The notes: generated by a model from the letters alone, not told the origin. A stretch of 64,000 bases of DNA from a virus (IMGVR_UViG_3300049172_000068:7387-71386); one strand, 5' to 3'; positions 9,377 to 48,801 are shown, counted from the stretch's first letter. Numbers and translations are program-made.

Positions 9377-9409
9377 GCGCACCCCCGGGTCTTCGGGCCG
9401 GGGGTGCGC
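9377..9409. terminator. GC-rich hairpin
   Basis: GCGCACCCCCGG-9nt-CCGGGGGTGCGC. Confidence 0.6.
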
Positions 9410-9421
9410 GCTCACCCTTCC

Positions 9422-27497: not shown

Positions 27498-27535
27498 GAA
27501 GGGCCCGACCGCGAGTGCGGTCGGGCCCTTCTTTG
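27498..27535. terminator. Strong terminator separating early genes from the leftward Nudix operon
   Basis: GAAGGGCCCGACCGC-GAGT-GCGGTCGGGCCCTTC-TTT, 15-bp perfect stem. Confidence 0.85.
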
Positions 27536-27540
27536 CGTTC

Positions 27541-27849
27541 TCAGACGCGTGACACCTCGAGCGGCGCCGGCACCGGCGGGGCGTCCAGGCCGAACCTGTC
27601 CGCGAGGAGCATCCGGGCCGCGGTGTCGCGCTCGAAGGCGCTGCGGCCGGGCGGCATCGACAGGATGCGGGAGCCGTCAGGAACCTCGACGAACGCCCCG
27701 AAGAACGTGGCATCCGTGATCGATGAGTTGACGAGTTCCACGTCCAGCTCGGCGAGGAGCTCGTCGAGTGGCGCATCCAACAGGCGATCTGTCGACAAAG
27801 CGGGGCGCGCTAAAGCGAGCGCTTCGCTACTCTGCATGGGTAGCTCCAT
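27541..27849 (-). CDS. Small ImmA/IrrE-N-like protein lacking HEXXH
   Basis: LLAELDVELVNSSITDATFFGAFV..ILSMPPGRSAFERD. Confidence 0.45.
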   Translation of the reverse strand: MELPMQSSEALALARPALSTDRLLDAPLDELLAELDVELVNSSITDATFFGAFVEVPDGSRILSMPPGRSAFERDTAARMLLADRFGLDAPPVPAPLEVSRV

Positions 27850-27999
27850 CCTTCACAGGGGTTGGGTTGCTGGATCTGCGAGTCGCCACTCGCGGGTCGA
27901 ACTGGCCGGGCGGTCGCCACCGCCCGGCCGTTCGCGTTTCTAGGAGCCTCGTGGATGAGGCCGCCGGATTGGGAGGGCACCACACAAGACCTTCACAGG

Positions 28000-28410
28000 T
28001 CAGTGCGGCAGAACCTCGTCGAGGTACTCCTGGACCTTCTCGTACAGCGGGTACGGCACGTAGTCCGTGATCTCCGAGTGGGAGACCCAGGCGACCGCGT
28101 CGAGTTCGTCCTCGTCCGCGACCCGGGCTTCGCCCTGCAGCACCTCGCAGGCCGTGTACGACATCGCGCGCCCGGTCTTCGGGTGAACGCGCTCGCCCAG
28201 GAGCCGGATCGCCGTGACGACCAGCCCGGTCTCCTCGACCGTCTCCCGAACGGCCGCATCCTCGGCGGCCTCGCCGGGCTCGATCTGGCCGGCCGGGAAC
28301 TGCCACATGAGCTCGCCCTCGGAGACGCGACGGCGCACCATCAGCACGCGGTCGTCCTGCACGATGATCGCGGCGCTGATGCCGGGCTTCTCGGTGATCG
28401 TCTCGGTCAT
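28000..28410 (-). CDS. Nudix hydrolase with canonical box
   Basis: GQIEPGEAAEDAAVRETVEETGL = GX5EX7REUXEEXGU; ATGA overlap with the upstream gene. Confidence 0.9.
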   Translation of the reverse strand: MTETITEKPGISAAIIVQDDRVLMVRRRVSEGELMWQFPAGQIEPGEAAEDAAVRETVEETGLVVTAIRLLGERVHPKTGRAMSYTACEVLQGEARVADEDELDAVAWVSHSEITDYVPYPLYEKVQEYLDEVLPH

Positions 28411-29048
28411 ACCGTTGCCTCCAGGGCGTCCAGGATCGGCGGATAGATGCGGTCGGTGGGGATGAAGCGGCTGAGCTCGCTTATCGGAGCCCATGCCACG
28501 GCGACGTTCTCCGAGGAATCCCCGTTGACCGCCTCGCCGTGCACGTAATCGCAGATGAAGTAATCGCACATTGCGCGCGTATTAGGGTGCAGTCGTTCAC
28601 CCAGATGTTCACGGACCAGGCAATGCACGCCCGTCTCGTCCAGGGTTTCCCGGACCGCGACCTTCGACGCCGAGCCGCCCGGCTTGACGATGCCTGCCGG
28701 GAACTGCCAGGCGATGTCGTCACCGTCCTGCCTGCACACGAGCAGCACCTCACCGCCACGTCGGACCACGGCGATGGCCACCCGGAGTGCCTGCGCCTCT
28801 GGCTGGGGCGCCCCTGTCCGCAACGAATGGATGAACCGCCGGCGCACCGCATCACCTGCCAATCTGTAGGTCGTATCCAGGATTCGCTGCGTCTCCGGCT
28901 GGGGCACCATTTTCGGATTGGCGCGCCATGAGGCCACGCTCCGAACCGACACCCCGAGTTTCGCTGCGAATTCTTCCTGGGTGATCTCGAATGCGTCATG
29001 GAGCCGGGCGGCTTTCTCCCCGGTCCACTGCTGAACTCCGTCGTCCAC
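28407..29048 (-). CDS. XRE-HTH plus degenerate Nudix fusion (probable sensor-regulator)
   Basis: ITQEEFAAKLGVSVRSVASW HTH; box GIVKPGGSASKVAVRETLDETGV with E>G and EE>DE changes; GAGGAG RBS. Confidence 0.85.
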   Translation of the reverse strand: MDDGVQQWTGEKAARLHDAFEITQEEFAAKLGVSVRSVASWRANPKMVPQPETQRILDTTYRLAGDAVRRRFIHSLRTGAPQPEAQALRVAIAVVRRGGEVLLVCRQDGDDIAWQFPAGIVKPGGSASKVAVRETLDETGVHCLVREHLGERLHPNTRAMCDYFICDYVHGEAVNGDSSENVAVAWAPISELSRFIPTDRIYPPILDALEATV

Positions 29049-29091
29049 TATCGGCTCCTCGGCCGCCTTTGTGGGCCCTTCCGCAGCGGGC

Positions 29092-29152
29092 CTGCATGGG
29101 GCTGCATGGTCCGCTTCAGATCACTGCATGGTGCTGCATGGGATCTTCATGG
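29092..29152. repeat. 8-bp direct repeat array CTGCATGG
   Basis: Exact at 29092, 29102, 29124 and 29134; one-mismatch copy at 29145. Confidence 0.8.
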
Positions 29153-29200
29153 TCTGGGCGCGCCTGCACGCGAAGACTCGATCCCATGACGGAATCGCGA

Positions 29201-29446
29201 TCACCTGCCTCGTGCGAGGGCCTCCGCGCGAGAGCCGCTGAAGCCGAGGAGGTCGCCCACCTCGGCCCAGGTTCGACCTTCGTAGAGCTCCCATACGACC
29301 GCCTTCTGGATCTCCATGAGTGCGCGGTCGGCGGCGTTGTGTTTCGCGCGTTCATTCTTCGCCGCTTCGAAGCGCTCAATCGGATCAGCGATGGCGGCAA
29401 CGGGGGCGGCCTCGGCGTTGGCGTATTCGGTGAGCGCATCGGTCAT
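29201..29446 (-). CDS. Small C-terminal HTH protein
   Basis: RTWAEVGDLLGFSGSRAEAL; divergent from the transfer operon. Confidence 0.65.
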   Translation of the reverse strand: MTDALTEYANAEAAPVAAIADPIERFEAAKNERAKHNAADRALMEIQKAVVWELYEGRTWAEVGDLLGFSGSRAEALARGR

Positions 29447-29533
29447 GGGCTCAGGGTAGGGATCGATGTCCGCCCCTTCAACCCTGTGTTGATGATCGCG
29501 GCGCAGCGGTTCCAGCTTTCTGGGCGAGGGGAG

Positions 29534-29575
29534 TTGACAGGTCGTCGGGGACGCCCTTCAATAGGGGTATTGAAG
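29534..29575 (+). promoter_or_regulatory. Candidate promoter/operator of the transfer operon
   Basis: TTGACA at 29534-29539; palindrome CTTCAATA-GGGG-TATTGAAG at 29556-29575. Confidence 0.5.
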
Positions 29576-29710
29576 TCGACGGCGCTCCACCGCTCGAAGC
29601 TTCAGCAGTCGCTCCACCGACTGCACCCCACAAACGAAAACGGCCCCAGCTCAGGGACTCCACTCCCTGGCCAGGGCCTCACCACGAGGAATCTCTGAAG
29701 GGTCCCCCTC

Positions 29711-30037
29711 ATGGCTACTGAGATCGTACCGGCGCCCGTGAGCGCTGAGCGCACCACCGCCCCGCTTCCGCCGGCCGCCACCGAGCCGCTGAGCGATTTC
29801 GCGGCCAAGCTCGTGGACCGGTTGGAACTGCGTCTGACGGCGCCGGAGGTTCTTCCGGCTGTGGCCCGCTATCAGGTCGCCTCGTACCGGACTGCTCAGT
29901 TGTCGAGCTGCTTGTACCGCTACGGCCTGTCGGACGCCGACTTCGATTCGCTCGAGTTCGCTCAAGACACGATGCGCGAGGCCCGCGCCGTCCTTGCCGC
30001 CGCCGGCCGCCTGGACCTGATCGGGGTGGCCGCATGA
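29711..30037 (+). CDS. Hypothetical protein, first gene of the transfer operon
   Basis: ORF ending in an AA tail, downstream of the candidate promoter. Confidence 0.55.
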   Translation: MATEIVPAPVSAERTTAPLPPAATEPLSDFAAKLVDRLELRLTAPEVLPAVARYQVASYRTAQLSSCLYRYGLSDADFDSLEFAQDTMREARAVLAAAGRLDLIGVAA

Positions 30038-30305
30038 TCGCCGCCGACGACACCCCGCAGCCGGAGCCGACGCCGGATCTGCCGCCGCTGCCGCAGGAGC
30101 CGGCTGCCCGCCGTCGGGCGATGAAGGTTCGGAAGTGGTGACGGTGACCGACGCCGAGCGCGCGGAACTGTCCCGCAAGTTGGCCGAGGCGAACCGCCAG
30201 AGCCGCAACCGGCCCAACTAGGGCCCCTGATCGCCGCGGGTGGCGGTGTCCGCCCCCGTCCCGCCGCCCGCGGCTCCCACTTCGCACGCCCCGAGAGGAG
30301 GCGCC

Positions 30306-30743
30306 ATGCTCGCCGACGACAACCCACGCCTGAGCCCCATGTGGTCGGGCCGTCGGGCCCCGTTCCAGGCGCTGCAGGACGCGCTCAGCGTGCTGGCCGG
30401 CTCCTACGACATGCGTGACGGCCGCAGCGACGACCCCATGTCGCGGGTGTCTGTCTCGGTCGACGACTGGCACGGGCAGCCGATCGTCCCGGCCCGCCGG
30501 TTCCCGGTCGCCGCGTTCGATGACCTGCTGCTCGCGGTGCAGCTGCTGGCGGCCCGGCATCGTGCCGAGGACGTGGCGGCGGGCTGGGTCGGGCAGGTCG
30601 ACGCCGAGCGCAGGGCCGCCGTCCGGGACCGCTGGCAGGCCCGAGGTGCCGACATGGGCGAGTTCCGGGCCGCGCTGCGGGCCGAGTTCGCCGAGTCGGC
30701 CCGGCTGTACGAGTCCGCGCCTCGCTTCGACGACGCGCCCTGA
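30306..30743 (+). CDS. Hypothetical protein
   Basis: GAGGAGG RBS before ATG 30306. Confidence 0.55.
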   Translation: MLADDNPRLSPMWSGRRAPFQALQDALSVLAGSYDMRDGRSDDPMSRVSVSVDDWHGQPIVPARRFPVAAFDDLLLAVQLLAARHRAEDVAAGWVGQVDAERRAAVRDRWQARGADMGEFRAALRAEFAESARLYESAPRFDDAP

Positions 30744-30793
30744 TCTTCACCCCCATCCCTTTCCCGCTCCACCTGACCAGTGAGGAACCACCC

Positions 30794-31024
30794 ATGTCTC
30801 CGTACCTGTTCGACGCTGATCTCGCCGCCACTGATCTGGGCCGCCAGGCCCGCGCTGCGACGCCGGTGTCCGCGCTGTCCGTGCTGTCCATCAGTGACCT
30901 GTTCACCGACTACGCCGCCGCTGTCGCCCGGGGTGACCGTGCCCGGGTGGCGGAGATCCGCCTGGCCGCCGACCCGCAGCTGGTGGCCGAGCTGGACGGC
31001 TTCGACTACCCGGCCGCCGCCTGA
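30794..31024 (+). CDS. Hypothetical protein
   Basis: GAGGA RBS. Confidence 0.55.
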   Translation: MSPYLFDADLAATDLGRQARAATPVSALSVLSISDLFTDYAAAVARGDRARVAEIRLAADPQLVAELDGFDYPAAA

Positions 31025-31149
31025 TGGCTGACCGCTGTGCTCAGTGCGAGGAGCACGCCGAGCTGCACCGCGGCAACTGGCTGGGTTTCGGCAAGCAGAA
31101 CGATCCGTGCCCGCCGTGTGAGGACCACGCCAAGAACGGCTGCCGCTGA
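31024..31149 (+). CDS. 41-aa CxxC/H protein (not in the track)
   Basis: My translation MADRCAQCEEHAELHRGNWLGFGKQNDPCPPCEDHAKNGCR*; TGATG overlap. Confidence 0.55.
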   Translation: MADRCAQCEEHAELHRGNWLGFGKQNDPCPPCEDHAKNGCR

Positions 31150-31221
31150 CCGCCGCAAGATCAGCTGGTGGCAACCGGCCGGCTGCCCGATCCATACCTC
31201 CAACCCCGAGAGGAGCCCACC

Positions 31222-31416
31222 GTGGCCCTGTTCCGTCGCACTCCCGCACCGAAGGGCTACCGCCCCACCGAGGCCGAGGTGGCGTCTGCCGCCGCCCAGT
31301 TGAACGCGGGCAGCCACCACGCCGCCTACGACCTCACCCTCCATTCCGGCGACTACCAGCAGGACACCGCGATGCGAATCCTCGGCCACTGCATCGAGGA
31401 CGGGGGCGGCTCGTGA
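31222..31416 (+). CDS. Hypothetical protein
   Basis: GAGGAG RBS. Confidence 0.55.
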   Translation: MALFRRTPAPKGYRPTEAEVASAAAQLNAGSHHAAYDLTLHSGDYQQDTAMRILGHCIEDGGGS

Positions 31417-31583
31417 GTCACTTCCACTGCCCCGACTGCCACCCGCAGTTGCAGCGCGGCGTGACCCCGGCGATCTGCGGCGAGATCATCCCGCCCGCCA
31501 TCGTCGGCAACGGCCCGGAGCGGAAGTGCCAGCCGTGCAAGAGCTCGCTGCGCCGGCACAAGGCCAGCCACCGCAAGCGCTGA
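31413..31583 (+). CDS. 56-aa zinc-binding protein (not in the track)
   Basis: HCPDC..C..CQPC; GTGA overlap. Confidence 0.5.
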   Translation: MSHFHCPDCHPQLQRGVTPAICGEIIPPAIVGNGPERKCQPCKSSLRRHKASHRKR

Positions 31584-31678
31584 CCGGCTGTCCGCGGCCC
31601 GCGTGTCGCACGCGGGCCCTGGAGAACTGGCGCAGCACCACCCCCAACCCCGTCCGTTCCGACCTGGAAGAGGTCGTC

Positions 31679-31882
31679 ATGTTCCGCGTCATCGCCTGGG
31701 CTGCCCTCGCCTTCTACCTGATCACCGTCGGCCTGTGGCCGGCCGCTCTCGCCCCGGTCTCGCTGGGCCTGGACGGGATCGCCGCGGTCATCGCCGCGGT
31801 CCCCGGCCCGGTTCTGGCCCTGGCCGCCGGCGCCGCCTGGCTGAAGCACCGGCCCGCCCCCGCCAAGACCGCCACCGCCTGA
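31679..31882 (+). CDS. Small Spd-like membrane protein
   Basis: 2 TM segments; GAGG RBS; directly upstream of the transfer genes. Confidence 0.6.
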   Translation: MFRVIAWAALAFYLITVGLWPAALAPVSLGLDGIAAVIAAVPGPVLALAAGAAWLKHRPAPAKTATA

Positions 31883-31903
31883 GACCCGAAGGGACTGATA
31901 CCC

Positions 31904-33187
31904 GTGACCGCCACGTCGATCGAAATGCTCAACGGCCACGACCACTTTGACCCGGTCGCGCTGGCTGAGGCGGAGGCGATCCGGACCCGCGCCGAAGCCG
32001 AAGCCGAAGCCGCCCGAATTAAGGCCGAGGGCGAGGCGGAGGCCGAGAAGATCCTGGCCGCCGAGAAGGCCGAGAAGGAGCGCCTTTCCAATGAGCGCGC
32101 GGCGATGCGGCTGGAGAAGGAGCGCGCCGACCACGAGGCGCACCTCGCCAAGAAGGCCGCCGAGAAGGCCAAGGCCGACGCCGAGCGGGAGAAGGCCGAG
32201 CAGGCCGCCGAGGAGGAGGCCGAGCGTGAGGCGCAACTGCTCGCCGAGCAGGAGCGGGCGGAGCGCTGGTGGAAGTGGGGCGCCCGCGGCATCTACGCCG
32301 TCGGCCTGATCATCGCCGCGCCGGTGCAGTTCATGCACTTCTGGGACCCCGAGCGGCCGTTCCTCGTCGCAGCCCCTGGTCTCCTGGAGGGCTTCGCGCT
32401 GGTGCTGGCCTTCGGTGCCACGTGGGCTGTTGCCCACCGGCGGGACGTTGCCCCGTACCGGATCGGCATCATGCTCGGCGCGATGATCGCAGCCGCGATC
32501 AACCTGCACGGCGGCATGACCGACCCGGCGATCGGCTTCAACGCGGGCCTGATCGGCGCCATCGCCTCGCTGGGCGGGCCGATCGTGCTGATGGCTTACG
32601 AGCACGGCATCGCGCAGAAGGTCGACGGCATCCCCTCCTTCCGAGAGCGGCGCGCAGCCGAGCGTGCCCGGCGTGAAGCGGAAGCCGCACGCGAGAAGGC
32701 GCGAGCTGAGAAGCAGGCCACCGAGGCTCGCGCCGCGGCCGAGAAGGCTGCCGCACAGGCCCGCGCCGAGGAGGAGCAGCGGCGCCGCGACGACGACCGT
32801 CGGACGGGCCACGACGAGGTGTGGCAGGTCGCCGACTCGATGCGTTCGGCGCGCGGCTCGCAGTACGTCACCGAGCAGATCTGGGCCGAAGCCTGGTACC
32901 GCGTGACGGGCTGCAAGACGGTCGGTATCACCCCCGAGATCGAGGCCAAGTCGCGTGCCGCGGCGGCCCGCATGAAGGTCGCCACCGACGTTCCGATAAT
33001 CGGTGACTTCGCGCAGGTCGAATCCCAAAAGGGCCCCCGCCCCAAGAAGGCCCCCGACGCTCCCGACGGGCGCCGCAACAACGGCGGTACTCCGCCCGTC
33101 CGCCGGCCCGGCCAGACCGCCCCCATCCACCCCGTCGCCCGCGCCCAGGCGCGCCTTGAGCAGACCACCGGGAAGGACTCGCAGTGA
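31904..33187 (+). CDS. Coiled-coil plus 4-TM protein (SpdB/DUF2637-like)
   Basis: E/A/K-rich coils flank four TM helices; GTGA-coupled to traB. Confidence 0.7.
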   Translation: MTATSIEMLNGHDHFDPVALAEAEAIRTRAEAEAEAARIKAEGEAEAEKILAAEKAEKERLSNERAAMRLEKERADHEAHLAKKAAEKAKADAEREKAEQAAEEEAEREAQLLAEQERAERWWKWGARGIYAVGLIIAAPVQFMHFWDPERPFLVAAPGLLEGFALVLAFGATWAVAHRRDVAPYRIGIMLGAMIAAAINLHGGMTDPAIGFNAGLIGAIASLGGPIVLMAYEHGIAQKVDGIPSFRERRAAERARREAEAAREKARAEKQATEARAAAEKAAAQARAEEEQRRRDDDRRTGHDEVWQVADSMRSARGSQYVTEQIWAEAWYRVTGCKTVGITPEIEAKSRAAAARMKVATDVPIIGDFAQVESQKGPRPKKAPDAPDGRRNNGGTPPVRRPGQTAPIHPVARAQARLEQTTGKDSQ

Positions 33188-35292
33188 GCATAGAGACGAC
33201 CCCCAGCAGCGCCCCGGACCCGGAGTGGGAGCGCATCGTCGGCGACTACCTGAACGCCCCCGGCGAGGCGCCCGTCGAGAAGCAGACGACGTCCGTCGAC
33301 CTGATGGGCGACACCCCCCTCACCCCGGCCTGGACGAAGACCCGCACCGGCTGGAAGAGCTGGGCCGAGCTCGGTCGCATCAACACGATGCGCGGCTTCC
33401 GTAAGTGGCTGCGCCGGCAGGCCAGCGAGCACGGTCACGCCTCCCAGATCGGCCGCGGTGTGCGCCGCACCGCGCTGTGGGTGCAGGGCACCGAAGGCGC
33501 CCAAGTCCTCGCCGCCCGGCACGAGGTGCAGCAGACGCAGCGCGACTACAAGGCCGCGAAGTGGGCGCACGACCGGCGGCTCATGCCCGGAAAGGAGAAG
33601 GAGAAGCGGCGCCGGGAGATGGAGGGTGCGTTCGCCGACTCGGCGTCGGCGATGAGTAAGTACCGGTCGGCGCAGCGGGATGCTCGGATGCGGCGGGCCG
33701 TGCGCGGCGTCGCGGCCCTCGCTCCGATCGCCGGTGTCGAGGGTGCCGGCCTGGCGCTGCTCGGCGCCCCGGGCGGGATCGCCGCCACCGCGGCGACCCT
33801 GGCCGCGTTCGCGTTGATCGGCCGGCGCACCACCGCAGGGGAGCTGTACACCGACCGCGACGCGAAGATCGGCGACGGGGACCGGATGACCGACGAGATG
33901 GTCAACCGCGTCTACCGCAGCGCCAAGGTCATCGGCGCGGAAGACATCGTCAAGCTGCTGTCGCCGTGCACGCTCACCGCGGACGGCTCCGCCTGGGAGG
34001 TTCGGCTGGAGCTACCCGACGGCATCCCCGCCTCGAAGGCGCTCGGCGCGACGGCGCAGCTCGCGAACGGCTTCGGCGTCAGCGTGCAGCAGGTATCGCA
34101 GACCAAGGGTGAGCGGGAGGACTGGCTCACCCTGCGCGTCACCCTCAAGGTTCCCTTCACGGGTAAGCCCAAGAGGGGGCCGCTGCTCACCGCGGAGAAG
34201 GTCAACCTGTGGCAGCCGGTGCCGATGGCCGTGTCCGAGCGCGGTGACGTCATGGCCGTGGAGTGGTTCGAGAAGACCGCCCTGTACGGCGGCGAGCCCG
34301 GGTCCGGCAAGTCGGCTGCGGCGAACAACCCGCTGCTCTCCGCGAGCCTGGATGTGACCGCCGACTTCTATCTGGCCGACGGCAAGGGCGGCTTCGACCT
34401 GTCACCGTTCGAGCCGATCGCCCAGATGATCGACACCGACGGCGACCCCGAGCAGCTGCTCGCCATCCTGCGGCACGTGTGGGAAGTGGTCCTTCCCGGG
34501 CTGAAGCAGACGGTCAAGGACCACCGGGTCCGCAAGTTCTCCGAGGCGCTGGCCGCGCAGGACGAGCGGGTGCGCTTCACCATCCTTTACATCGACGAGT
34601 GGGCCTCCTACATGGCCGCCGCCAGCCAGGAGCAGCAGAAGGAGCTGGACCGGCTCCTGCGGCTGATAACGCAGCAGGGCCGCGCCTACGCGGTGATCGT
34701 CATCGCGGCCACGCAGAAGCCCGACTCGAACGCTGTGCCCACCGGCATCCGCGACATCCTGTCCACACGCTGGGCCGGCCGCTGCATGACACCCGAGGCG
34801 TCCGACACGATCCTCGGCAAGGGCCGGGCGTCCGCCGGCTACAACGCGCAGCGGATCCTCAAGTCGCAGCGAGGTGTGGGCTACCTGCAGACCGGCGAGA
34901 CCTCGGAGCCCACGCTCACGCAGTCGTACTTCTACACCGACGAAGAGGTCGAGGTGATCCTGCGGCGGGCCTACGAGCTGCGGAAGGCGGCTGGCGTGCT
35001 GCCGGTCGCAGTCGAGCCCGAGGTGACGGTCCTCGACCATCTGATCAAGGCGGCGGCCGGAACTGGGCGCGGCAACGTAACCCGCGCCGAGGTGTTCGCC
35101 TACCTAGCCACCGTCGACGAGGAGTTCGTTCAGGCCGGTGGCGAGAGTGATGAGCGCTACCGGTCTCGGGTCGGCAGCCTCCTCAAGGAGCGCGTCGCTG
35201 AACTCGGGGCCGAAGTGCCCGCAGTGCAGTTCCCGCTCGACGGTAAGCGCGTCTGGGGATGGACCCTTGAGGCTCTCCAGGGAGCCCGATAG
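33184..35292 (+). CDS. traB: TraB-type FtsK/SpoIIIE conjugative dsDNA translocase
   Basis: N-terminal TM pair; Walker A GEPGSGKS, Walker B ILYIDE, AATQKP, GRC..SDTILG; C-terminal wHTH-like domain. Confidence 0.88.
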   Translation: MSIETTPSSAPDPEWERIVGDYLNAPGEAPVEKQTTSVDLMGDTPLTPAWTKTRTGWKSWAELGRINTMRGFRKWLRRQASEHGHASQIGRGVRRTALWVQGTEGAQVLAARHEVQQTQRDYKAAKWAHDRRLMPGKEKEKRRREMEGAFADSASAMSKYRSAQRDARMRRAVRGVAALAPIAGVEGAGLALLGAPGGIAATAATLAAFALIGRRTTAGELYTDRDAKIGDGDRMTDEMVNRVYRSAKVIGAEDIVKLLSPCTLTADGSAWEVRLELPDGIPASKALGATAQLANGFGVSVQQVSQTKGEREDWLTLRVTLKVPFTGKPKRGPLLTAEKVNLWQPVPMAVSERGDVMAVEWFEKTALYGGEPGSGKSAAANNPLLSASLDVTADFYLADGKGGFDLSPFEPIAQMIDTDGDPEQLLAILRHVWEVVLPGLKQTVKDHRVRKFSEALAAQDERVRFTILYIDEWASYMAAASQEQQKELDRLLRLITQQGRAYAVIVIAATQKPDSNAVPTGIRDILSTRWAGRCMTPEASDTILGKGRASAGYNAQRILKSQRGVGYLQTGETSEPTLTQSYFYTDEEVEVILRRAYELRKAAGVLPVAVEPEVTVLDHLIKAAAGTGRGNVTRAEVFAYLATVDEEFVQAGGESDERYRSRVGSLLKERVAELGAEVPAVQFPLDGKRVWGWTLEALQGAR

Positions 35293-35336
35293 GCCCCGTT
35301 TGCCCCTAAGTGGGTGTATCGGTATCTACCAGTTTG

Positions 35337-35466
35337 CCCCTGTGTGACCCCTATGCAGAGAGGGCGTCACCCTGTGCACCGCGCACAGGGGTCGGGCCTG
35401 CCTGCACAGGGGGCCGCACAGTCCATGACCTGCGGCTTCATCGCCGCGCACAGTCCCTGCACACCC
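35337..35466. repeat. GCACAG(GG/TC) repeat cluster, candidate clt
   Basis: CCCTGTG 35338, CCCTGTGC 35370, GCACAGGG 35383 and 35404, GCACAGTC 35416 and 35448, CCCTGCAC 35455; non-coding, right after traB. Confidence 0.55.
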
Positions 35467-35483
35467 CTACGAAGGAGATCCGC

Positions 35484-35810
35484 ATGCCCGCCAAGTACAC
35501 CGCCGGAGAGATCGCCCGTCTCGCCCGCCTGGAGTTCAAAGCCGCCCGCCGCGTCGTCGCCGCCGGCCACGAGGCCGCTGGAGGCAACGACCGGGCACAG
35601 GACCGCATCCACGACCGTGCCCAGCAGCGCTGGGAGCGAGAAGCCAGCGTCGCCTTCAACCAGCTGGACGCCGCGGAGAGCGAGCTCGCCAAGGCCGAGA
35701 TCGCCCTGCGGTCCGCCCGGGGCACGGACAAGGCCGCCGCTCGCAGCGCCCGCAACGACGCCAAGGACAAGGTCCGCCGCGCAGACAAGACCGCCCGCAA
35801 GTACCGCTGA
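35484..35810 (+). CDS. Coiled-coil protein (DUF6257-like, plasmid-associated)
   Basis: AAGGAG RBS; YTAGEIARLARLEFKAARR; family name recalled. Confidence 0.6.
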   Translation: MPAKYTAGEIARLARLEFKAARRVVAAGHEAAGGNDRAQDRIHDRAQQRWEREASVAFNQLDAAESELAKAEIALRSARGTDKAAARSARNDAKDKVRRADKTARKYR

Positions 35811-35829
35811 CCAGAGGAGCCCATCCGCC

Positions 35830-36312
35830 ATGTCCGCCCTGCCCGAGCGGTACCGCCCCTACGCCAACCAGGCCGCCGGGCAGCCGCACCGGCCCACCGC
35901 CATCTACCAGCCGCAGCCCGTCGCCCGCTACGACGAGCGCCCGCCGATCGCCTGGGTCGCCGACCCCTACAACCCGGACCGCTCCGTCGCCGTTGACGCC
36001 CGCCTCATCCAGCGCCCCGAGCCCGCCCAGCCGCGCGACCTCTCGCCGCAGCCGCTCCTTGACCCGGTCGCGCAACGCTGGCTTGGCGCAGGCGTCGGAG
36101 TCGGAGCCGCCGGAGCGGGCGTCGGCTGGGGCCTCGGCCAACTCGCCGCGGGCATCGCCCTCATGGGCACCGCCGGAGTGGCCATCCTCGCCGGGCTCCT
36201 CCTCGCCGCCGCCAGCATGCGAGGCCGCAGCATCACCAACATCCACAACGAGGCCCACACCCACGTCACGCAGAAGTGGCTCGGCCGGACCAACGTCACC
36301 AACCAGCAGTAG
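35830..36312 (+). CDS. Spd-like membrane protein
   Basis: Pro-rich N-terminus, Gly-rich 2 TM, T/N/H-rich tail as seen in Streptomyces plasmid spread proteins. Confidence 0.6.
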   Translation: MSALPERYRPYANQAAGQPHRPTAIYQPQPVARYDERPPIAWVADPYNPDRSVAVDARLIQRPEPAQPRDLSPQPLLDPVAQRWLGAGVGVGAAGAGVGWGLGQLAAGIALMGTAGVAILAGLLLAAASMRGRSITNIHNEAHTHVTQKWLGRTNVTNQQ

Positions 36313-36321
36313 GAGAACCCA

Positions 36322-36510
36322 ATGGAGCGTTACCACCACCTGTACTGGATGTACACGATCCTGGCCCCGCTCATCCTGGGCCTGATCGCTCTCGCCTTGA
36401 TCCTCCTGCCTGGGGAGCCGAACACCGGCCGCATGCTCATCGGGCTGGCGGTCTACCTCGTGATCGCCGTCGTCGGTGGCTTCTTCATCACCCGCCGCTT
36501 CGACCGGTGA
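36322..36510 (+). CDS. Small 2-TM protein
   Basis: AGGAG RBS; hydrophobic. Confidence 0.6.
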   Translation: MERYHHLYWMYTILAPLILGLIALALILLPGEPNTGRMLIGLAVYLVIAVVGGFFITRRFDR

Positions 36511-36521
36511 AAGGACTCGTC

Positions 36522-36770
36522 ATGACCGAGCCGTTCTGGTGGCCGCAGGTACTGGCCGCGACGTCGACCCGTCGTCAGGCGGCGGGCATGCTCCTCGCCC
36601 ACGCCACCCCCACCGCCCACGACGGCACGCTGCGGCTGCACTTCGACCGGGCCGATATTGCCGCGGCGTGGCGGGACAGCGGGGCGCAGGCCGCGCTCGA
36701 AGGGGCCCTCACTCAGCTCGGGCACCGCATGACGATCGAAATCCGTACCCTCACAACACAGGAGGCATAG
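36522..36770 (+). CDS. Hypothetical protein
   Basis: AAGGA RBS. Confidence 0.55.
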   Translation: MTEPFWWPQVLAATSTRRQAAGMLLAHATPTAHDGTLRLHFDRADIAAAWRDSGAQAALEGALTQLGHRMTIEIRTLTTQEA

Positions 36771-36772
36771 CC

Positions 36773-37060
36773 ATGGGATACGCGCTCTACGAGATCACCC
36801 GCAACGGCGAGACCATCGAAGCCGGATACGCCGTCGAGACCGTCTGTGAAGAGGATGGCTGCACCGAGAAGATAGACCGCGGCCTCGCCCACCTCTGCGG
36901 CGCCCAGCCCGGCGGCGATGAATACGGCTGCGGCGGCTACTACTGCGGTTACCACCTCTACGGCGGCATCGGCCCCGCGCAAGGGCTCTGCAAGCGCGAC
37001 TCGAAGCGCTGGGAGGAGCAGGAGGAGAGCGAGGAAGAGCCTGCCTCTTCCGTCACTTGA
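36773..37060 (+). CDS. Cys-rich hypothetical phage protein
   Basis: GGAGG RBS; C...C..IDRGLAHLCG..GCGGYYC..H. Confidence 0.65.
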   Translation: MGYALYEITRNGETIEAGYAVETVCEEDGCTEKIDRGLAHLCGAQPGGDEYGCGGYYCGYHLYGGIGPAQGLCKRDSKRWEEQEESEEEPASSVT

Positions 37061-37469: not shown

Positions 37470-37856
37470 GTGGCCGACGCGCTCACCAATACGGCAGAGA
37501 ACCTCACCCTCGACTGGATCCTCGGCGTCGGCACACCGACCCGGCCCACCACCCCGCTGAAGGTCGCCCTGGTCACCGCGAACGGCACCGACACGGCGGC
37601 GGGCACCGAGGTGACCGGCGGCTCCTACGCCCGGCAGGACCTTGCGGTGGCCGCCGCGGTCGGCGGGGCGACCAGCAACTCGGCCGACCTGGTCTTCACC
37701 GGCATGCCGGCTGCGACCGTGGTCGGTGTCGAGATCTGGGACTCGGCGGGGACGCCGGTGCGGCTCTGGTACGGGCCGCTCACTGCGTCCCGCACCGTCT
37801 CCGCGGGGGATGAACTGGTGCTCTCGGCGGGGCAGCTCACCTTGTCCCTGGCGTGA
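37470..37856 (+). CDS. Virion structural protein (tail/fibre-associated)
   Basis: T/A/G-rich beta protein; LKVALVT..EVTGGSYARQ..F. Confidence 0.7.
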   Translation: MADALTNTAENLTLDWILGVGTPTRPTTPLKVALVTANGTDTAAGTEVTGGSYARQDLAVAAAVGGATSNSADLVFTGMPAATVVGVEIWDSAGTPVRLWYGPLTASRTVSAGDELVLSAGQLTLSLA

Positions 37857-37868
37857 TCGGAGGCCCGC

Positions 37869-38981
37869 ATGCCGAGCCTCTCCACGCTGATCGACAATTT
37901 CAATGCGGGCACGCTCGGCCCCGAGTGGGGCAACAGCTACGGCGGCACGGCAGTCGTCGGCGGCCGGGCCCGCGTCCCATGCACGACCGGCTATGCGGGC
38001 TGTCAGACCGGCTACGCGTGGACGCTGGCCGGCGCCTCCCTATTCGTACAGGTGCCCACCGCACCGGCAGCGGCCGGGGCTGCGGTCGAGGCGTACTTCG
38101 CGCTCACCGTCCAAGGCGCCACCGAAGGCACGCGGGTCGGGTTCTCGATGAACGCCGTCACAGGGCTTCTGCGGTGCGTGTCCGAGACGGACTACTGGGA
38201 CGACGCCGCGGTCGAGCTCACCTACGATCCGGTCGCGCACCTGTTCCTGCGGCTCGCCGAGGATGGGGTGAACCTCACCTGGGCCACGTCGCCCGACGGC
38301 AGCACGTGGACGACGAGGCGTACCCTCGCGACCCCGGCGTGGATCGTGGCCGATGCGGAGGCCTGCGCGCTAGACATGAGCGCCCACCGCGACTCCGGCA
38401 CTGACGACTACGTCGAGTTCGACCTCGTCAACACGCTCTCCAACGGGGCGGTGTTCACGGCCGCCGCGGACCTGTCCGCGCAGACCACGCTCGATGCCGC
38501 GGCCCTTGTAGCCGCCGGCGCCACAGCCGCACTGAGCGCCGAGGGCAGCCTCACTGCGACGCCCGTGCTGACCGCGCACGCAGCAGCCGCCCTGTCCGGC
38601 GAGGCGACACTCACCGCCGCATCCGCCGACACAGCGATCCCGGAGGTGGCCGAGTTGTCCGCCGGAGACTGGGACCTGTACATCGAGCAAGGCAGCACGT
38701 TCCTGCAGCGGTTTACAGTCGACGACGACCCCGACTTCACGTGGGACGGCTGGACGGCCCGCTCACAGATCCGGTCCGAAGCCTCGGCGAACGGTGAGCT
38801 GCTGCTCGACCTCACCGACTATCTGACCGTGGACGGCGCCGAGATTCGCCTTGCGATCCCCGCCAGCGTGACCGAGACCCTCACCCGCAACGGACGCTGG
38901 GACCTAGAGGTCGTCCAGGGCGCGACCGTCGTGCGGCTGCTCAACGGGCGGGCGATCGTGTCGCCGGAGGTGACCCGGTGA
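37869..38981 (+). CDS. Virion protein: lectin-like N-domain plus C-terminal BppU-N/Ig-like adaptor
   Basis: C-terminal WDLYIEQGSTF..GWTARSQIR..RWDLEV..RLLNG. Confidence 0.6.
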   Translation: MPSLSTLIDNFNAGTLGPEWGNSYGGTAVVGGRARVPCTTGYAGCQTGYAWTLAGASLFVQVPTAPAAAGAAVEAYFALTVQGATEGTRVGFSMNAVTGLLRCVSETDYWDDAAVELTYDPVAHLFLRLAEDGVNLTWATSPDGSTWTTRRTLATPAWIVADAEACALDMSAHRDSGTDDYVEFDLVNTLSNGAVFTAAADLSAQTTLDAAALVAAGATAALSAEGSLTATPVLTAHAAAALSGEATLTAASADTAIPEVAELSAGDWDLYIEQGSTFLQRFTVDDDPDFTWDGWTARSQIRSEASANGELLLDLTDYLTVDGAEIRLAIPASVTETLTRNGRWDLEVVQGATVVRLLNGRAIVSPEVTR

Positions 38982-40165
38982 GGATCCTCGTCACTGGCGA
39001 ACGGCCCGCCGACGCGATCACCGTCAACGGCGGGCCACAGTCCCGCGTCGTCACCGTCAACGCCGGCCTCGTGTCCAGCGTCAACGGCCGCACGGGCGGG
39101 GTCACGCTCACCGCCGAGATCATCGGCGCCGACCCGGCAGGCTCAGCGGCGGCAGCGCAGACCGCAGCCATCAGCGCTGCGGCGGCCGACGCTACAGCGC
39201 AGATCGAGATACACACCGAGGCGGACGACCCGCACGGCGACCGCGCCTACGCCGACGACACGTTCCTCCCGCTCGCTGGCGGCACGCTCGCTGGCGGCCT
39301 GTTCGCCGACCTTGGCGTCCGCGTCCTCTTCGCGAAGACCACGTCAACGACGCAGCACGCCGGCACCTTCTACCAGGCGGGCACGTCGGGCGCGCACGTG
39401 TCCGCGCTCAACGTAGTCTCCGACAACCCGCAGGGATCGGCGTTCCAGCTGTCCGGGACGGAGACGGCCCTCGGCACCGCGAAGATCAGCCACCTGAACC
39501 CGGGTCCCGATGCCACCTCGGATGCTGGCGCGGCGGCCCTGAGCCTGGACCTGAAGCGCAACGGCAAGGCGGGCACGGCTGCGCAGGGCATCTTCGTCAC
39601 CGCGACCGAAGGCGCCACCACCGGCAACCTGATCGTGCTCCGCAACAACGGCCGCGACGACTTCGTGGTGAAAGGCACCGGCCGGACCGGCGTCGGAATG
39701 GACATCGGCGAAGCGCCCGAAGCGTCGCTCGAGGTGAAGCAGCCCGACACCACCACGCCCGGCCTCGTCGTCACCGGCATCGCATCCACGACCTCGCCGC
39801 TGTTCCAGACGAAGACCTCGGCGGGCACGGCCACGCTGGAGGTCGGCAGCAGCGGGGCGATCGTGCACCGGGCGATCAGCTTCTACACCAGCGCCCTCCA
39901 GCTGGGATCCACGTCGTCCGACCTTGGCGGCTCCGGTGGCGCGGTCATCTCGATGAAGGACGCCACCACGGCGCCCACCACGAACCCGACCGGCGGCGTC
40001 ATCGCCTACAGCCAGGGCGGCGTGTTCAAGGTCCGCAGCGCGGCCGGGGTCGTCTTCGACACCACGCGGCGCACCGTGACCGGGGCGAAGGGCGGCAACG
40101 CGGCACTCACCTCGCTCCTCACGCAGCTCGCCACGATCGGGCTCATCACCGATAGCACCACCTAA
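38978..40165 (+). CDS. Tail fibre with phage hyaluronate-lyase (HylP)-like domain
   Basis: SALNVVSDNPQGSAFQLSGTETALGTAKISHLNP..AAALSLDL..GTAAQGIFV..GNLIVLRNNGRDDFVV closely parallels the recalled HylP triple beta-helix segment. Confidence 0.75.
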   Translation: MRILVTGERPADAITVNGGPQSRVVTVNAGLVSSVNGRTGGVTLTAEIIGADPAGSAAAAQTAAISAAAADATAQIEIHTEADDPHGDRAYADDTFLPLAGGTLAGGLFADLGVRVLFAKTTSTTQHAGTFYQAGTSGAHVSALNVVSDNPQGSAFQLSGTETALGTAKISHLNPGPDATSDAGAAALSLDLKRNGKAGTAAQGIFVTATEGATTGNLIVLRNNGRDDFVVKGTGRTGVGMDIGEAPEASLEVKQPDTTTPGLVVTGIASTTSPLFQTKTSAGTATLEVGSSGAIVHRAISFYTSALQLGSTSSDLGGSGGAVISMKDATTAPTTNPTGGVIAYSQGGVFKVRSAAGVVFDTTRRTVTGAKGGNAALTSLLTQLATIGLITDSTT

Positions 40166-42827: not shown

Positions 42828-43265
42828 ATGGGTGCACGAGGGCCTATCGGTAAGCGCTCCGAGGAGCGCATGGGGCATCGCTCCAAGGACGAGAAGGACT
42901 CGATCACCAAGGCCCCGTCTGGGCCGCCGCTTGATCTGCCGGACCTGCCGGGCCCGGATCCGCTGTGGCATCCGATCGCCACCGACTGGTACCTGTCCCT
43001 TCAGGAGTCCGGCCAGGCCGTCTTTTACCAGCCGTCGGACTGGGCGATGGCCCGGTACGCGGCAGAGCTCATGTCCCGGGGGCTGTCGTCGGACCGGCCG
43101 CCGAACGGCCAGTACGTCTCGGCTCTCGATAGCGTCATGGCCCGTCTCCTGACGACCGAGGGGGACCGGCGCCGGGCGCGGATCGAGCTGGAGCGGAAGC
43201 CCGTCGGCCCACAGTTGGCATCGGTGAAGCCACTGGACGCCTACCGTGACCTCGCTGGTGGCTGA
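42828..43265 (+). CDS. terS: Terminase small subunit
   Basis: MGARGPIGKRSEER..WHPIATDWY..SGQ..FYQPSDW..L.TEGDRRRARIEL; precedes terL. Confidence 0.8.
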   Translation: MGARGPIGKRSEERMGHRSKDEKDSITKAPSGPPLDLPDLPGPDPLWHPIATDWYLSLQESGQAVFYQPSDWAMARYAAELMSRGLSSDRPPNGQYVSALDSVMARLLTTEGDRRRARIELERKPVGPQLASVKPLDAYRDLAGG

Positions 43266-44988
43266 CGAGGCTGCCCCGGAGGTCGTCGAGCCGTTCACGA
43301 TCGGACCGACCTGGAAGCGCGGCCCGGACGGGCGGTTCATCCTGCCCGAGTACACGCTGGGCTGGCACTGTCTAGCGTGGACGGCAACCTACCTTCAGCA
43401 CTACGTCGGGGCGCCCTGGCGGTACACCGCCGAGCAGGCCCGGCTGACGCTGTGGTGGTACGCGATGGATCCGGCAACGAACCGGTTCCTCTATCGAGAC
43501 GGTGTGATCCAACGGCTGAAGGGACACGGCAAGGATCCCCTCGGCGCTTCGTGGTCGGGGTTTGAGTTCGTCGGCCCGTGCCGCCCGTCGGGGCAGGTTG
43601 CGGATGAGGGCGACGAATGGGGGATCCCCCCTGGGCAGCCGATCGGAGTACAGCACCCGGCGGCCTGGGTGCAGATCGCTGCCGTGTCGCAGGACCAGAC
43701 GCGCTCGACGATGACGCTCTTCCCAGGCATGTTCAGTAGGCGGGCGCTCGAGGAGTACCGCATCGATCTCGGCAAGGAGATCATCTACGCCGACAAGGGG
43801 CGCGCTCGAATCGAAGCTGTCACCTCGTCGCCTCGCGCCATGGAGGGCGGTCGGCCGACCTTCGTCCTGTTGAACGAGACGCATCACTGGATCGACTCGA
43901 ACCAGGGCCACGAGATGGCTGCGGTCATCGAGCGCAACTCGACGAAGAGCGCGGACGGCATGTCTCGCACGCTGGCTCTCACGAACGCCTATGAGCCTGG
44001 TGAGGACAGTGTCGCGGAGCGCACCCGGGAGGCGTTCGAGTCGGTTGAGGCCGGCCGGGTGGTGGATACGGGCCTGTTCTACGACTCGCTGGAGGCTCCG
44101 GCTGAGGCGAAGTTGACCGAGGAGTGGATCGTCCCAACCTTGAAGGCGGTCCGCGGGGATTCGACGTGGCTGGACATCGAGCGGTTGAAGGCGTCGATCC
44201 TTGATATCCGTAACCCGCCGAGCAGGTCGCGGCGCTTCTGGTTCAACCAGATCGTGGCCGCGGAGGATGCGTTCCTCGCCCCCTATGAGTGGGACGCCTG
44301 CGGGCGTGAGGGTGCCGGGCTGCAACCGAATGACGAGATCGTCCTGTTCTTCGACGGCTCCAAGTCGGACGACGCCACGGGCCTGGCGGCCTGCCGCATG
44401 TCGGACGGGTTCGTCACTGCGCTGGGCGTGTGGCAGCGGCCGCCGAACTGGCCAGGGGATGTGCCGTGGCGGGTTCCGCGTGAGGAGGTCGACGGGACGG
44501 TGGATCAGGTGTTCGCGGACTACCGGCCGATCGCGTTCTTCGCCGACCCGGGCGCCGGCCACGACGACGCCGACGGTGAACGCTATTGGGACGGCTACAT
44601 CGACGCCTGGGCTCAACGATACGGGAAGAAGCTGAAACTGAAGGCGGTGACGGGCGGCGCGAACCGGCATGCGGTGCTGTGGGATATGCGTGACCGGCGC
44701 CGCCAGCAGACCTTCACGGAGGCCGTGGACCGCTTCTACCGGGATGTGCTGGAGCGGCAGTTGTTCCATGACGGGCACCGGATGCTGCGTCAGCACGTCG
44801 CGAATGCGCGGCGCCGCACCAACGCGTGGGGCTACACGATCGGCAAGGAGCACCGCGAGTCGGCCCGCAAGGTCGACCTCGCGGTCTGTGCGATCGGGGC
44901 GCGGATGCTGCGCCGGATGATGTTGAACTCGACGGCGTGGGCGAAGCGCGGCACGCCCGGCAAGGGGAGGGTGGTGGTGCTTCGATGA
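43246..44988 (+). CDS. terL: Terminase large subunit
   Basis: RLKGHGKD (Walker A variant), LLNETHHW, FFDGSKSDDATGL, KVDLAV. Confidence 0.92.
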   Translation: MTSLVADEAAPEVVEPFTIGPTWKRGPDGRFILPEYTLGWHCLAWTATYLQHYVGAPWRYTAEQARLTLWWYAMDPATNRFLYRDGVIQRLKGHGKDPLGASWSGFEFVGPCRPSGQVADEGDEWGIPPGQPIGVQHPAAWVQIAAVSQDQTRSTMTLFPGMFSRRALEEYRIDLGKEIIYADKGRARIEAVTSSPRAMEGGRPTFVLLNETHHWIDSNQGHEMAAVIERNSTKSADGMSRTLALTNAYEPGEDSVAERTREAFESVEAGRVVDTGLFYDSLEAPAEAKLTEEWIVPTLKAVRGDSTWLDIERLKASILDIRNPPSRSRRFWFNQIVAAEDAFLAPYEWDACGREGAGLQPNDEIVLFFDGSKSDDATGLAACRMSDGFVTALGVWQRPPNWPGDVPWRVPREEVDGTVDQVFADYRPIAFFADPGAGHDDADGERYWDGYIDAWAQRYGKKLKLKAVTGGANRHAVLWDMRDRRRQQTFTEAVDRFYRDVLERQLFHDGHRMLRQHVANARRRTNAWGYTIGKEHRESARKVDLAVCAIGARMLRRMMLNSTAWAKRGTPGKGRVVVLR

Positions 44989-47835: not shown

Positions 47836-48801
47836 ATGGTGGCAACGCCCCCGATCAAGCTCTCGTCGGTCGACGAGACGTTCCTCCCGCCCACCCTGGT
47901 GGGCCCGATCTTCGAGAAGTCGGTCGAGGCCAGCGCGGTGATGTCGCTGGCCAAGCGGGTTCCGCTGTCGATGACGGCGCAGACCTCCGTGCCCGTCCCG
48001 CTGGACGTGCCGACCGCGGACTGGGTGTCTGAGGGTGGCCGCAAGCCGCTGTCGACGGGCGGCGTCGACATCAAGCACATGAGCGGCAAGAAGATCGCTG
48101 TGCTCATTCCGGTGTCGATGGAGGTCGCGAACTCCAACGCGGCGGGCCTGTGGACGCAGCTCCAGCGGGATCTGCCGACGGCGTTCGCCCGGGCCTTCGA
48201 TCACGCGACGATCCACGGCCTGACGATGAAGGGCGCCACGGGCCCGTTCGCGGACTTCCTCGGGAACACCTCCAAGGAGGTTGTCCTCGGGACCGCGTCG
48301 CAGACGACCGGCGGCATCTGGACGGACTTCGTCAACGGCATGGAGCTGCTGATCGACGATGACTGGGACTTCACCGGCACCGTCGCCGACAATCGCGTCA
48401 AGCCGAAGCTTCTGAAGGCCACCTCGTCGACCGGCGAACCGCTCTTCGTGGACACCCGTTCCTCGGCGGCCACGGGCACCGGGCGGGCGCTGCAGGGTGA
48501 GCTGCTCGGTGAGCCGCTCGCATACTCGCGCAGCGTGTCCGGCAAGCAGCGCCGCCAGTCCACCTCGGTGGACTCCGGCCTGCGGGCGATCGGCGGTGAC
48601 TGGTCGCAGGCGGCGTTCGGTGTCGGCATGGACATCACGGTGCGGATCTCCCGCGACGCGACGTATATCGATGAGGACGGCGGCGTCCACTCGGCGTTCC
48701 AGGACAACCTGGTGCTGCTCCTGGCGGAGGCCTACTACGGCTTCGTCATGGGCGACGAGGAGGCGTTCGTGCGGTACGTGGCGACCGCTGGAGCGTCGTG
48801 A
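47836..48801 (+). CDS. Major capsid protein (HK97 fold)
   Basis: ADWVSEGGRKP..KKIAVLIPVSME..AFARAFD..GDWSQ..FQDNLVLLLAEAYYG. Confidence 0.92.
   Translation: MVATPPIKLSSVDETFLPPTLVGPIFEKSVEASAVMSLAKRVPLSMTAQTSVPVPLDVPTADWVSEGGRKPLSTGGVDIKHMSGKKIAVLIPVSMEVANSNAAGLWTQLQRDLPTAFARAFDHATIHGLTMKGATGPFADFLGNTSKEVVLGTASQTTGGIWTDFVNGMELLIDDDWDFTGTVADNRVKPKLLKATSSTGEPLFVDTRSSAATGTGRALQGELLGEPLAYSRSVSGKQRRQSTSVDSGLRAIGGDWSQAAFGVGMDITVRISRDATYIDEDGGVHSAFQDNLVLLLAEAYYGFVMGDEEAFVRYVATAGAS

Follow-up and report, generated by a model that had tools for sequence, protein, structure and literature searches.

The DNA analysed here, referred to as the window, is a stretch of 64,000 nucleotides comprising bases 7387–71386 of a 71,386-bp virus record (IMGVR_UViG_3300049172_000068), which holds the complete genome of a temperate, Streptomyces-type tailed phage. 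Between the early and late genes of this phage lies a block, at 27.5–37.1 kb of the window, that encodes homologues of TraB, the double-stranded DNA (dsDNA) translocase of Streptomyces plasmids and of the integrative and conjugative elements of actinomycetes (AICEs), and of the spreading protein SpdB2, followed by a cluster of short repeats that is a candidate clt site. Gene calling by third-position GC content (GC3) gave 104 genes; the G+C content of the window DNA is ~70%, with a dip to 0.66 at 28–30 kb. The original prediction had set the block at 27541–36510, between the early terminator and the late genes. The genes were found at those coordinates, and comparison with the plasmid NZ_CP108705.1 (see below) moves the right edge out to about 37,060. 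The features of the block are listed here, with coordinates counted from the first base of the window.

27498–27531, plus strand: intrinsic terminator at the end of the early operon, forming the left edge of the block (15-bp stem with 12 GC pairs, T-rich tail)
27541–27798, minus strand: g56, 85 amino acids (GC3 gene call)
28000–28410, minus strand: canonical Nudix hydrolase, a Pif-like candidate (Pfam NUDIX, 1.4e-23)
28407–29048, minus strand: fusion of an XRE-type helix-turn-helix (HTH) and a Nudix domain, coupled to the downstream Nudix gene (Pfam NUDIX, 7e-16; HTH_3, 3e-4)
29092–29141, no strand: four copies of CTGCATGG in the Nudix operon promoter region (direct repeat family D14), possibly an operator
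29201–29446, minus strand: 81-residue HTH protein, divergent from the transfer operon and a candidate local repressor (weak match to phrog_686, HTH DNA-binding protein, 9e-4)
29711–31416, plus strand: five small genes encoding 108, 167, 76, 41 (CxxC zinc-ribbon-like) and 82 residues (GC3 gene calls)
31526–31882, plus strand: 118-residue protein with two predicted transmembrane (TM) segments (hydropathy, 50–68 and 74–92), Spd-like by position
31904–33187, plus strand: SpdB2 homologue of 427 residues (coiled coil at the N-terminus, then four TM segments, another coiled coil and a basic tail; 4-nt overlap with the start of traB)
33184–35292, plus strand: TraB-type dsDNA translocase of 702 residues (homology, tree, phrog_1358, Walker A/B, TM hairpin, winged-helix C-terminus)
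35293–35483, no strand: candidate clt in a 191-nt gap, with five to seven GCACAGG-type 8-mers in two opposed arms (cluster statistics)
35484–35810, plus strand: basic helical protein of 108 residues (weak match to Pfam DUF6257, 2e-4, below the cut-off)
35830–36312, plus strand: 160-residue protein with a single TM segment (109–127)
36322–36510, plus strand: 62-residue protein with two TM segments (hydropathy)
36507–37060, plus strand: two small genes (87 residues; 95 residues, Cys-rich) at the end of the block, before the g73 homologue (gene calls)

The ATPase encoded at 33184–35292 shares 38.5% identity with TraB of plasmid pSVH1 over 623 residues (E 1e-109) and 37–40% with two other plasmid TraBs, whereas identity to chromosomal FtsK, taken from two Streptomyces genomes, is only 23% (E 1e-7). 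In a quick maximum-likelihood tree (IQ-TREE), the phage TraBs and the plasmid/AICE TraBs form one clade with 99% support, outside which lie FtsK and the small pSAM2-type Tra proteins; inside the joint clade, four plasmid/AICE TraBs make up their own branch and the phage TraBs another. Identity and tree thus agree in placing the protein in the pSVH1-type TraB clade, distant from chromosomal FtsK, as had been proposed. It also matches phrog_1358 (3e-103), a family that PHROGs files under 'moron, auxiliary metabolic gene and host takeover'. The anticipated FtsK-family architecture was recovered as well, with a Walker A motif (GEPGSGKS) at 370, a Walker B-like motif (ILYIDE) at ~466 and a hydrophobic hairpin at 172–217 which, from Kyte-Doolittle hydropathy, is predicted to anchor the protein in the membrane ahead of the motor domain. 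An AlphaFold model of residues 600–702 (predicted local distance difference test score, pLDDT, of 89) has the topology H-b-H-H-b-b of a winged helix. Foldseek matches of this model were consistently to winged helices, headed by those of forkhead, histone H1 and ORC proteins; these top matches are weak (E 0.03 or worse) and none fell below E 0.001. A sequence search of solved structures returned weak matches to the motor domain only, to a TcpA-type coupling protein (1e-4) and to FtsK (5e-3).

FtsK-like genes have been mentioned for virulent Streptomyces phages including Geonosis, Jaresh and AndoPrime (PMC11536984, PMC13587820). That the window gene is simply a common actinophage FtsK-like gene was considered and rejected: a tblastn search covering 50,697 records of cultured phages turned up only two matches, each at 25% identity, in a Bacillus and a Staphylococcus phage. 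A separate observation concerns a 1063-residue TraB relative (P0021; 76% identity over 55% of the query), which contains a LAGLIDADG homing-endonuclease domain, an intein-like arrangement inside the pump gene.

The 427-residue product of the gene preceding traB had been described as a coiled-coil protein with four TM segments coupled to the ATPase gene. This description holds: the four hydrophobic segments lie within residues 126–232 with coiled coils on either side, and the stop of the gene overlaps the start of traB. A gene for a protein of 430–450 residues overlaps the start of traB in every locus. The window protein finds no match to SpdB2 of pSVH1 by BLAST and no Pfam family at E up to 0.01. 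Profile comparison with hhalign, in which 12 phage copies were set against three plasmid/AICE SpdB2 sequences, gave a probability of 99.3% (E 1.9e-20, 182 columns). The published layout of SpdB2 (PMC4447253), a coiled coil at residues 1–99 followed by four TM helices and then a C-terminal domain, is one with which the phage protein agrees. Profile and layout together identify the protein as an SpdB2 homologue.

The predicted repeat cluster downstream of the ATPase gene is also present. Five copies of the motif GCACAG[GT] lie within 85 nt 3' of traB (35371–35455), compared with 17 in the whole 71-kb record (Poisson ~1e-9). The repeat analysis was run identically on all relatives, with pSVH1 as the positive control. 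Each related locus carries 5–12 copies of one 8-mer within ~180 nt of the traB stop, and the copies are arranged in two opposed arms with conserved offsets of ~12, 24, 46, 66 and 78, then 90, 111, 122, 154 and 165. Both pSVH1 and an AICE present in one of the collected genomes (G242) yield a GACCCGGA-like motif in the same analysis; GACCCGGA is reported to be the sequence that pSVH1 TraB recognises. Among the phage loci, six motif types were distinguished by eye from k-mer counts: GCACAGG, GTCCAGGC, CCCCGTCC, GCCGGACG, ACCCTGCC and a GCACCC-like type.

At 20 of 20 loci, grouping TraB by its C-terminal 75 residues gives the same six groups as the repeat motif does, and the residues that vary cluster in the predicted wing and recognition helix. 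These paired types do not follow the phylogeny of the rest of the protein. They are dispersed over the motor-domain tree, so the DNA-reading domain and its target have been exchanged together repeatedly. The window (type A) and loci L005 (type B), L018 (type F) and L019 (type E) are each other's closest relatives overall; the TraB of L005 is 91% identical to that of the window, but has a different C-terminus and a different motif. Such joint exchange is hard to explain unless TraB binds the repeats and this binding is under selection, and the match between motif and winged helix, the strongest line of evidence here, suggests that TraB and clt operate as a functional pair on the phage DNA.

At L018, a lone open reading frame (ORF) situated 3' of traB and clt (L018:12646–12909, equivalent to G002:C6:56889–57152) codes for another TraB-like winged helix. 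This one shares 48% identity with the C-terminus of type B, in a locus whose resident TraB is of type F, and may be a spare or relic specificity cassette.

Close relatives of the window TraB (58–91% identity) were found on 13 IMG/VR contigs and in seven species genomes, on contigs of 0.16–9 Mb; hosts of relatives include S. azureus ATCC 14921, S. bullii CGMCC 4.7019, S. wuyuanensis CGMCC 4.7042 and Streptomyces sp. cg35. At least 120 clusters of proteins match it at 53% identity or above, many of them from named Streptomyces chromosomes and megabase-size contigs. The survey for the same cassette at the boundary of early and late genes, suggested in the original prediction, shows it in many related phages and prophages: the spdB2-traB-repeat trio stands in the same place at 17 of 20 distinct loci, with the large terminase gene terL 4–12 kb away within the flank that was fetched. 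The trio is found beside at least five types of terL or portal gene (terL of phrog_9 variants, phrog_38 and phrog_2; portal of phrog_104, 12 and 533). None of the ~20 TraB copies contains a stop codon, and the ratio of nonsynonymous to synonymous substitution rates (dN/dS) over the initial 620 alignment columns is 0.10–0.42, which indicates that TraB is under purifying selection. The cassettes had been expected to be usually decayed, or flanked by an att site or Rep of their own, if the prediction was wrong; they are instead intact and accompanied by neither, in contrast to the AICE of G242.

Integration was seen in a syntenic relative whose integrase differs from that of the window. This 63.4-kb element, on a 332-kb contig of Streptomyces sp. 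NPDC094143, is integrated between 44-bp direct repeats, one of which lies inside a tRNA-Val gene, and its genes run in the order Int, early genes, spdB2-traB, terL, tail genes and homologues of window genes 5–12. The lysogeny and early genes of the window record itself include a tyrosine integrase (9664–10971), a cI-like HTH repressor, a Xis-like HTH_17 gene, a DnaN-like protein and a Gp3-like protein. Its late set comprises terL (43246–44988), portal, protease, major capsid, a 1510-residue tape measure and distal tail genes, and the initial 7.4 kb of the record encode tail-fibre-like proteins. IMG/VR lists the record as linear and CheckV as complete. There is no overlap between its termini, and an ORF joins both ends: beginning at window position 63984, coupled by an ATGA to the preceding gene and with coding-type GC3, it continues in frame over the record end (window 63984–64000 plus record bases 1–1330). 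The record therefore represents one circularly permuted genome with an intact attP beside the integrase, that is, the circular (attP) form and not an integrated prophage. Of the original description as a complete siphovirus prophage, the complete gene set (integrase, cI-like repressor, terL, portal, capsid and tail) stands, and the integrated state applies to the relative. Two tandem prophages, an alternative considered for the arrangement of genes, are not supported, given the seamless ORF over the record ends together with the integrated relative, in which the homologues of window genes 5–12 follow the tail genes. Because the record is circular, phage genes flank the probable attP on both sides. 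Two features of this region are listed here:

7572–8997, minus strand: two GntR-family genes (an 80-residue GntR winged HTH at 7572–7814 and a 193-residue GntR+UTRA protein at 8416–8997), candidate TraR/Kor-type regulators near attP (Pfam)
8998–10971, minus strand: non-coding stretch of 666 nt, the probable attP, and tyrosine integrase (Pfam Phage_integrase; gap in the gene calls)

We next consider whether the block could be an autonomous element nested in the phage. It has no flanking direct repeats and no bounding tRNA gene, and a second integrase was not found within it. Prim-Pol is absent from the record in a six-frame search; searches for RepAM and Rep_1 were also without match, and their controls likewise failed to score. 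No window protein matches the Rep of pSVH1 or the Rep-like gene of the G242 AICE. A nested AICE was accordingly rejected, since the block and its surroundings show neither Rep nor Int nor att repeats and its position is kept in many phages; the earlier statement that this is not an autonomous element is in keeping with these results.

The history of the block is illuminated by NZ_CP108705.1, an 88-kb plasmid which carries ParA/ParB and a type III polyketide synthase and whose whole late module is 50–90% identical in amino acid sequence to that of the window phage. It is probably a phage-plasmid of the pZL12/pSLE1-like kind. It has no detectable homologue of the window TraB or of the block, and its homologues of g54 and g73 are adjacent; the intervening stretch, at ~27.3–37.1 kb of the window, is therefore extra in the window. 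By this comparison the block is an insertion relative to NZ_CP108705.1 and is optional in the lineage. Both NZ_CP108705.1 and NZ_CP109578.1 are circular Streptomyces phage-plasmids of 88–92 kb, and MOB-suite types them as non-mobilizable. A search of the phage collection with the terL of a pZL12-like plasmid gave no near match.

The remaining genes of the block are small. g56 has no match in Pfam or PHROG; copies 35–84% identical occur in several relatives, at the same place (L011, L012, L013, L015, L016 and L022). The Nudix gene is found in only some relatives (L012, L022 and G308). The CTGCATGG units, with the HTH-Nudix gene on one side and the small HTH gene on the other, are arranged in two 18-nt direct repeats. 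A divergent region of 264 nt separates the minus-strand genes from the plus-strand run, whose five leading genes have no family match in Pfam, PHROG or NCBIfam scans; four genes of this part of the block (g60, g62, g63 and g64) are found again 5' of traB in relatives. The Nudix genes and small zinc and HTH genes noted originally thus correspond to two Pfam NUDIX matches, the HTH matches and the 41-residue CxxC protein. The 118-residue two-TM protein is 45–92% identical in most relatives, where it immediately precedes the SpdB2 homologue. Downstream of traB, copies of the 108-residue basic protein recur in L007, L009 and L024. The two further membrane genes that had been reported there lie at 35830–36312 (one TM) and 36322–36510 (two TM): the product of the former is 39% identical to that of a gene 3 kb 3' of traB on plasmid NZ_CP130726.1, and the latter has copies 77–85% identical 3' of traB in L018 and L021.

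In pSVH1 and in AICEs, a divergent gene for a GntR repressor (TraR/KorSA) stands before the transfer operon (PMC4447253, PMC2440964), and in pSAM2 korSA is coupled with the Nudix gene pif, whose product is a conjugal-immunity factor (PMC2440964). Several phage relatives have GntR/UTRA genes adjoining the tra operon at the place where the window has its small HTH gene. One of the GntR products of the window (g19) shares 36% identity with the N-terminal part of TraR from pSVH1. The HTH, HTH-Nudix, Nudix and GntR genes may each be candidates for control of the tra operon. The tra operon of L021 (Streptomyces sp. cg35) has two GntR/UTRA regulators beside it, and one of them (1918–2853, minus strand) carries an N-terminal GIY-YIG nuclease domain.

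Elsewhere in the phage genome, the interval from the tail genes to attP holds genes for a second tyrosine recombinase and a Ku homologue (window 2157–3176 and 3862–4770). In the integrated relative, this recombinase and its small neighbours are found again at the same end. Directly 3' of the major capsid gene lies a glycosyltransferase-like gene (window 48798–49826; phrog_26352 and, more weakly, phrog_2170) that is kept both in relatives and in NZ_CP108705.1. A three-gene module before the terminase (window 37470–40165), encoding a Gp80-like fibre, an LtfC-like protein and a HylP-like hyaluronidase fibre, accompanies the TraB block in many relatives and is missing from NZ_CP108705.1.

Taken together, these observations suggest that the block is a built-in, selectively maintained module for DNA transfer and spreading, of the Streptomyces plasmid/AICE type, in a temperate siphovirus; we give this reading a probability of roughly 60%. 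The phage would then probably possess a second, capsid-free route of spreading. We envisage that the divergent regulatory region (the minus-strand HTH and Nudix genes, with the GntR genes elsewhere) would control the plus-strand operon that ends in spdB2-traB. TraB would be seated in the membrane, presumably as a hexamer like TraB of pSVH1, with its C-terminal winged helix docked on the 8-bp GCACAGG repeats of clt, which lie in the phage DNA right after traB. The FtsK-like motor could then pump the circular dsDNA phage genome through the hyphal wall or the septal cross-walls, with SpdB2 and the small membrane proteins forming the channel and spreading apparatus, and with the phage integrase and replication genes replacing the Rep/Int module of an AICE. 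Alongside infection by particles, the phage might in this way enter adjacent compartments or hyphae with neither virions nor lysis.

Several results weigh against this reading. The TraB protein scores only 24.2 bits on Pfam FtsK_SpoIIIE, at a cut-off of 24, and 28.3 bits on the NCBIfam equivalog plasmid_TraB (NF041214), for which the cut-off is 800; judged by these scores and the tree, it is outside the narrow equivalog and within the wider TraB clade. None of the 50,697 cultured phage records contains a close TraB homologue by tblastn, which leaves no laboratory phage with the module to hand, and phage-type TraB is present in just three to four of 401 sampled Streptomyces species genomes (plasmid/AICE-type TraB at 40% identity is present in ~8 of the 401). 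The Nudix pair is missing from most relatives, and the GntR genes of the window are 20 kb from the block, unlike those of usual plasmid tra operons. TraB also diverges much faster than the structural genes; in one genome with the same phage backbone as the window (G290; terL 84%), TraB is only 44% identical. This could mean a relaxed or changed function instead of diversifying specificity.

In its strongest form, the proposal is that this integrating Streptomyces phage lineage is truly conjugative. The excised circle would be pumped by TraB via its own clt into neighbouring hyphae, needing neither capsid nor lysis, and the six or more interchangeable types of winged helix and clt would be specificity classes like incompatibility or immunity groups, which would prevent co-resident elements from sharing a pump. 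We hold this form tentatively, at somewhat less than even odds. The same machinery could instead act within one mycelium only, with circles crossing septal cross-walls or entering prespore compartments and no transfer between strains, such that a single entry event lysogenises or lyses a whole colony, or spores inherit the phage. FtsK-like pumps act at septa that are closing, and the invariant core of the phage cassettes is spdB2-traB-clt, the immunity-type Nudix genes being mostly absent. In pSVH1, moreover, spdB2 is needed for intramycelial spreading and not for primary transfer, and the same role has been proposed for phage SpdB2 (PMC4447253). Against this, traB of pSVH1 is the one gene essential for intermycelial transfer (PMC4447253), and six TraB/clt specificity types are more easily explained if the elements meet in mixed populations. 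Nothing in the sequence tells these two roles apart, and spreading within one mycelium is as good a reading as capsid-free transfer; restricted to the single mycelium, with its consequences for colonies and spores, we consider it rather unlikely.

A less probable account, which we regard as improbable overall, is that the cassette serves some other end: mobilising chromosomal or other DNA, excluding plasmids, AICEs or other phages, or inhibiting growth in the manner of a Kil protein, with the repeats as a regulatory site. On plasmids, traB acts as a kil gene, and chromosomal markers can be mobilised by TraB (background in PMC4447253); the PHROGs category would suit such a role, and the cassette is optional, being missing from the related phage-plasmid. 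The array nonetheless keeps the layout of a plasmid clt and its motif changes with the reading domain of TraB, as expected of a cis-acting substrate site, and SpdB2 and the membrane partners are conserved along with it. The adjacency of the g54 and g73 homologues in the phage-plasmid, implying that the block was inserted, and the low GC at 28–30 kb would also be compatible with a decaying AICE or plasmid remnant hitch-hiking in the phage. This is poorly supported and very unlikely, given ORFs that are intact in ~20 diverged copies with low dN/dS, a position that is the same beside at least five different terminases, the co-variation of TraB and clt, and the lack of any Rep/Int remnants or att scars.

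If the module works, it blurs the line between phages and conjugative elements in a new way. In pZL12, the one case known to have been studied, a plasmid also makes virions; here, an integrating prophage would leave either as a virion or as naked dsDNA via a single-protein pump. This would change the view of gene flow, of the spread of lysogens in colonies and of phage host range in mycelial antibiotic producers, and the matched types of winged helix and repeat would constitute a natural set of orthogonal DNA-pump/target pairs. Our literature search found no paper on an integrating phage with a TraB-clt-SpdB2 module. Two components of the idea are already in print, namely phage SpdB2 homologues with a proposed part in spreading (PMC4447253) and the conjugating plasmid-phage pZL12 (PMC3583192).

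The reference for the comparison with plasmids is the tra-spd region of pSVH1 (TraR, SpdB3, Spd79, SpdB2, Orf108, TraB, clt; Thoma et al., 2015, PMC4447253). The window resembles it in the order of spdB2, traB and an array of 8-bp repeats directly 3' of traB, in the two-armed layout of that array, in a TraB of 38.5% identity and an SpdB2 homologous by profile, and in the divergent regulator heading the operon. It differs in that spdB2 and traB overlap, whereas pSVH1 has Orf108 between them; in the motif, which is GCACAGG instead of GACCCGGA, and in the winged helix; in the adjacent regulator, which is a small HTH and an HTH-Nudix protein where pSVH1 has a GntR; and in its carrier, a 71-kb tailed-phage genome without a Rep gene.

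With AICEs of the pSAM2/pSVH1-like kind (te Poele et al., 2008, PMC2440964), the window phage shares a tyrosine integrase, a Pif-like Nudix gene, GntR regulators, the SpdB2-like and TraB pair and the logic of excision followed by transfer, and its relative shares integration of the tRNA type. AICEs are elements of 9–24 kb that encode RepSA, RepAM or Prim-Pol and no virion genes (PMC2440964); the locus in G242 (G242:C3) is a classical example, with a Nudix gene, an SpdB2-like gene, a pSVH1-type TraB, a Rep-size gene and an integrase but no phage genes. At 71 kb, with a full set of head, tail and packaging genes, phage-type integrase and replication genes and no match to RepSA, RepAM or Prim-Pol, the window phage lies outside that definition. 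It lies equally outside that of the phage-plasmids of pZL12/pSLE1 type. The plasmid-phage pZL12/phiZL12 is reported to have a tailed-phage genome and to conjugate via a major tra gene and its neighbours (cited in PMC3583192; also PMC4487206), and elements like it persist as plasmids that encode ParA/ParB. Neither ParA (AAA_31) nor ParB_N was found when the entire record was searched in six frames, with positive controls, and the window phage has an integrase and a cI-like repressor instead. The temperate Streptomyces phages phiC31 and VWB, finally, encode SpdB2 homologues which have been proposed to help spread phage DNA; as cited (PMC4447253), these phages have SpdB2 homologues only, whereas the window phage combines SpdB2 with a TraB motor and its cognate clt.

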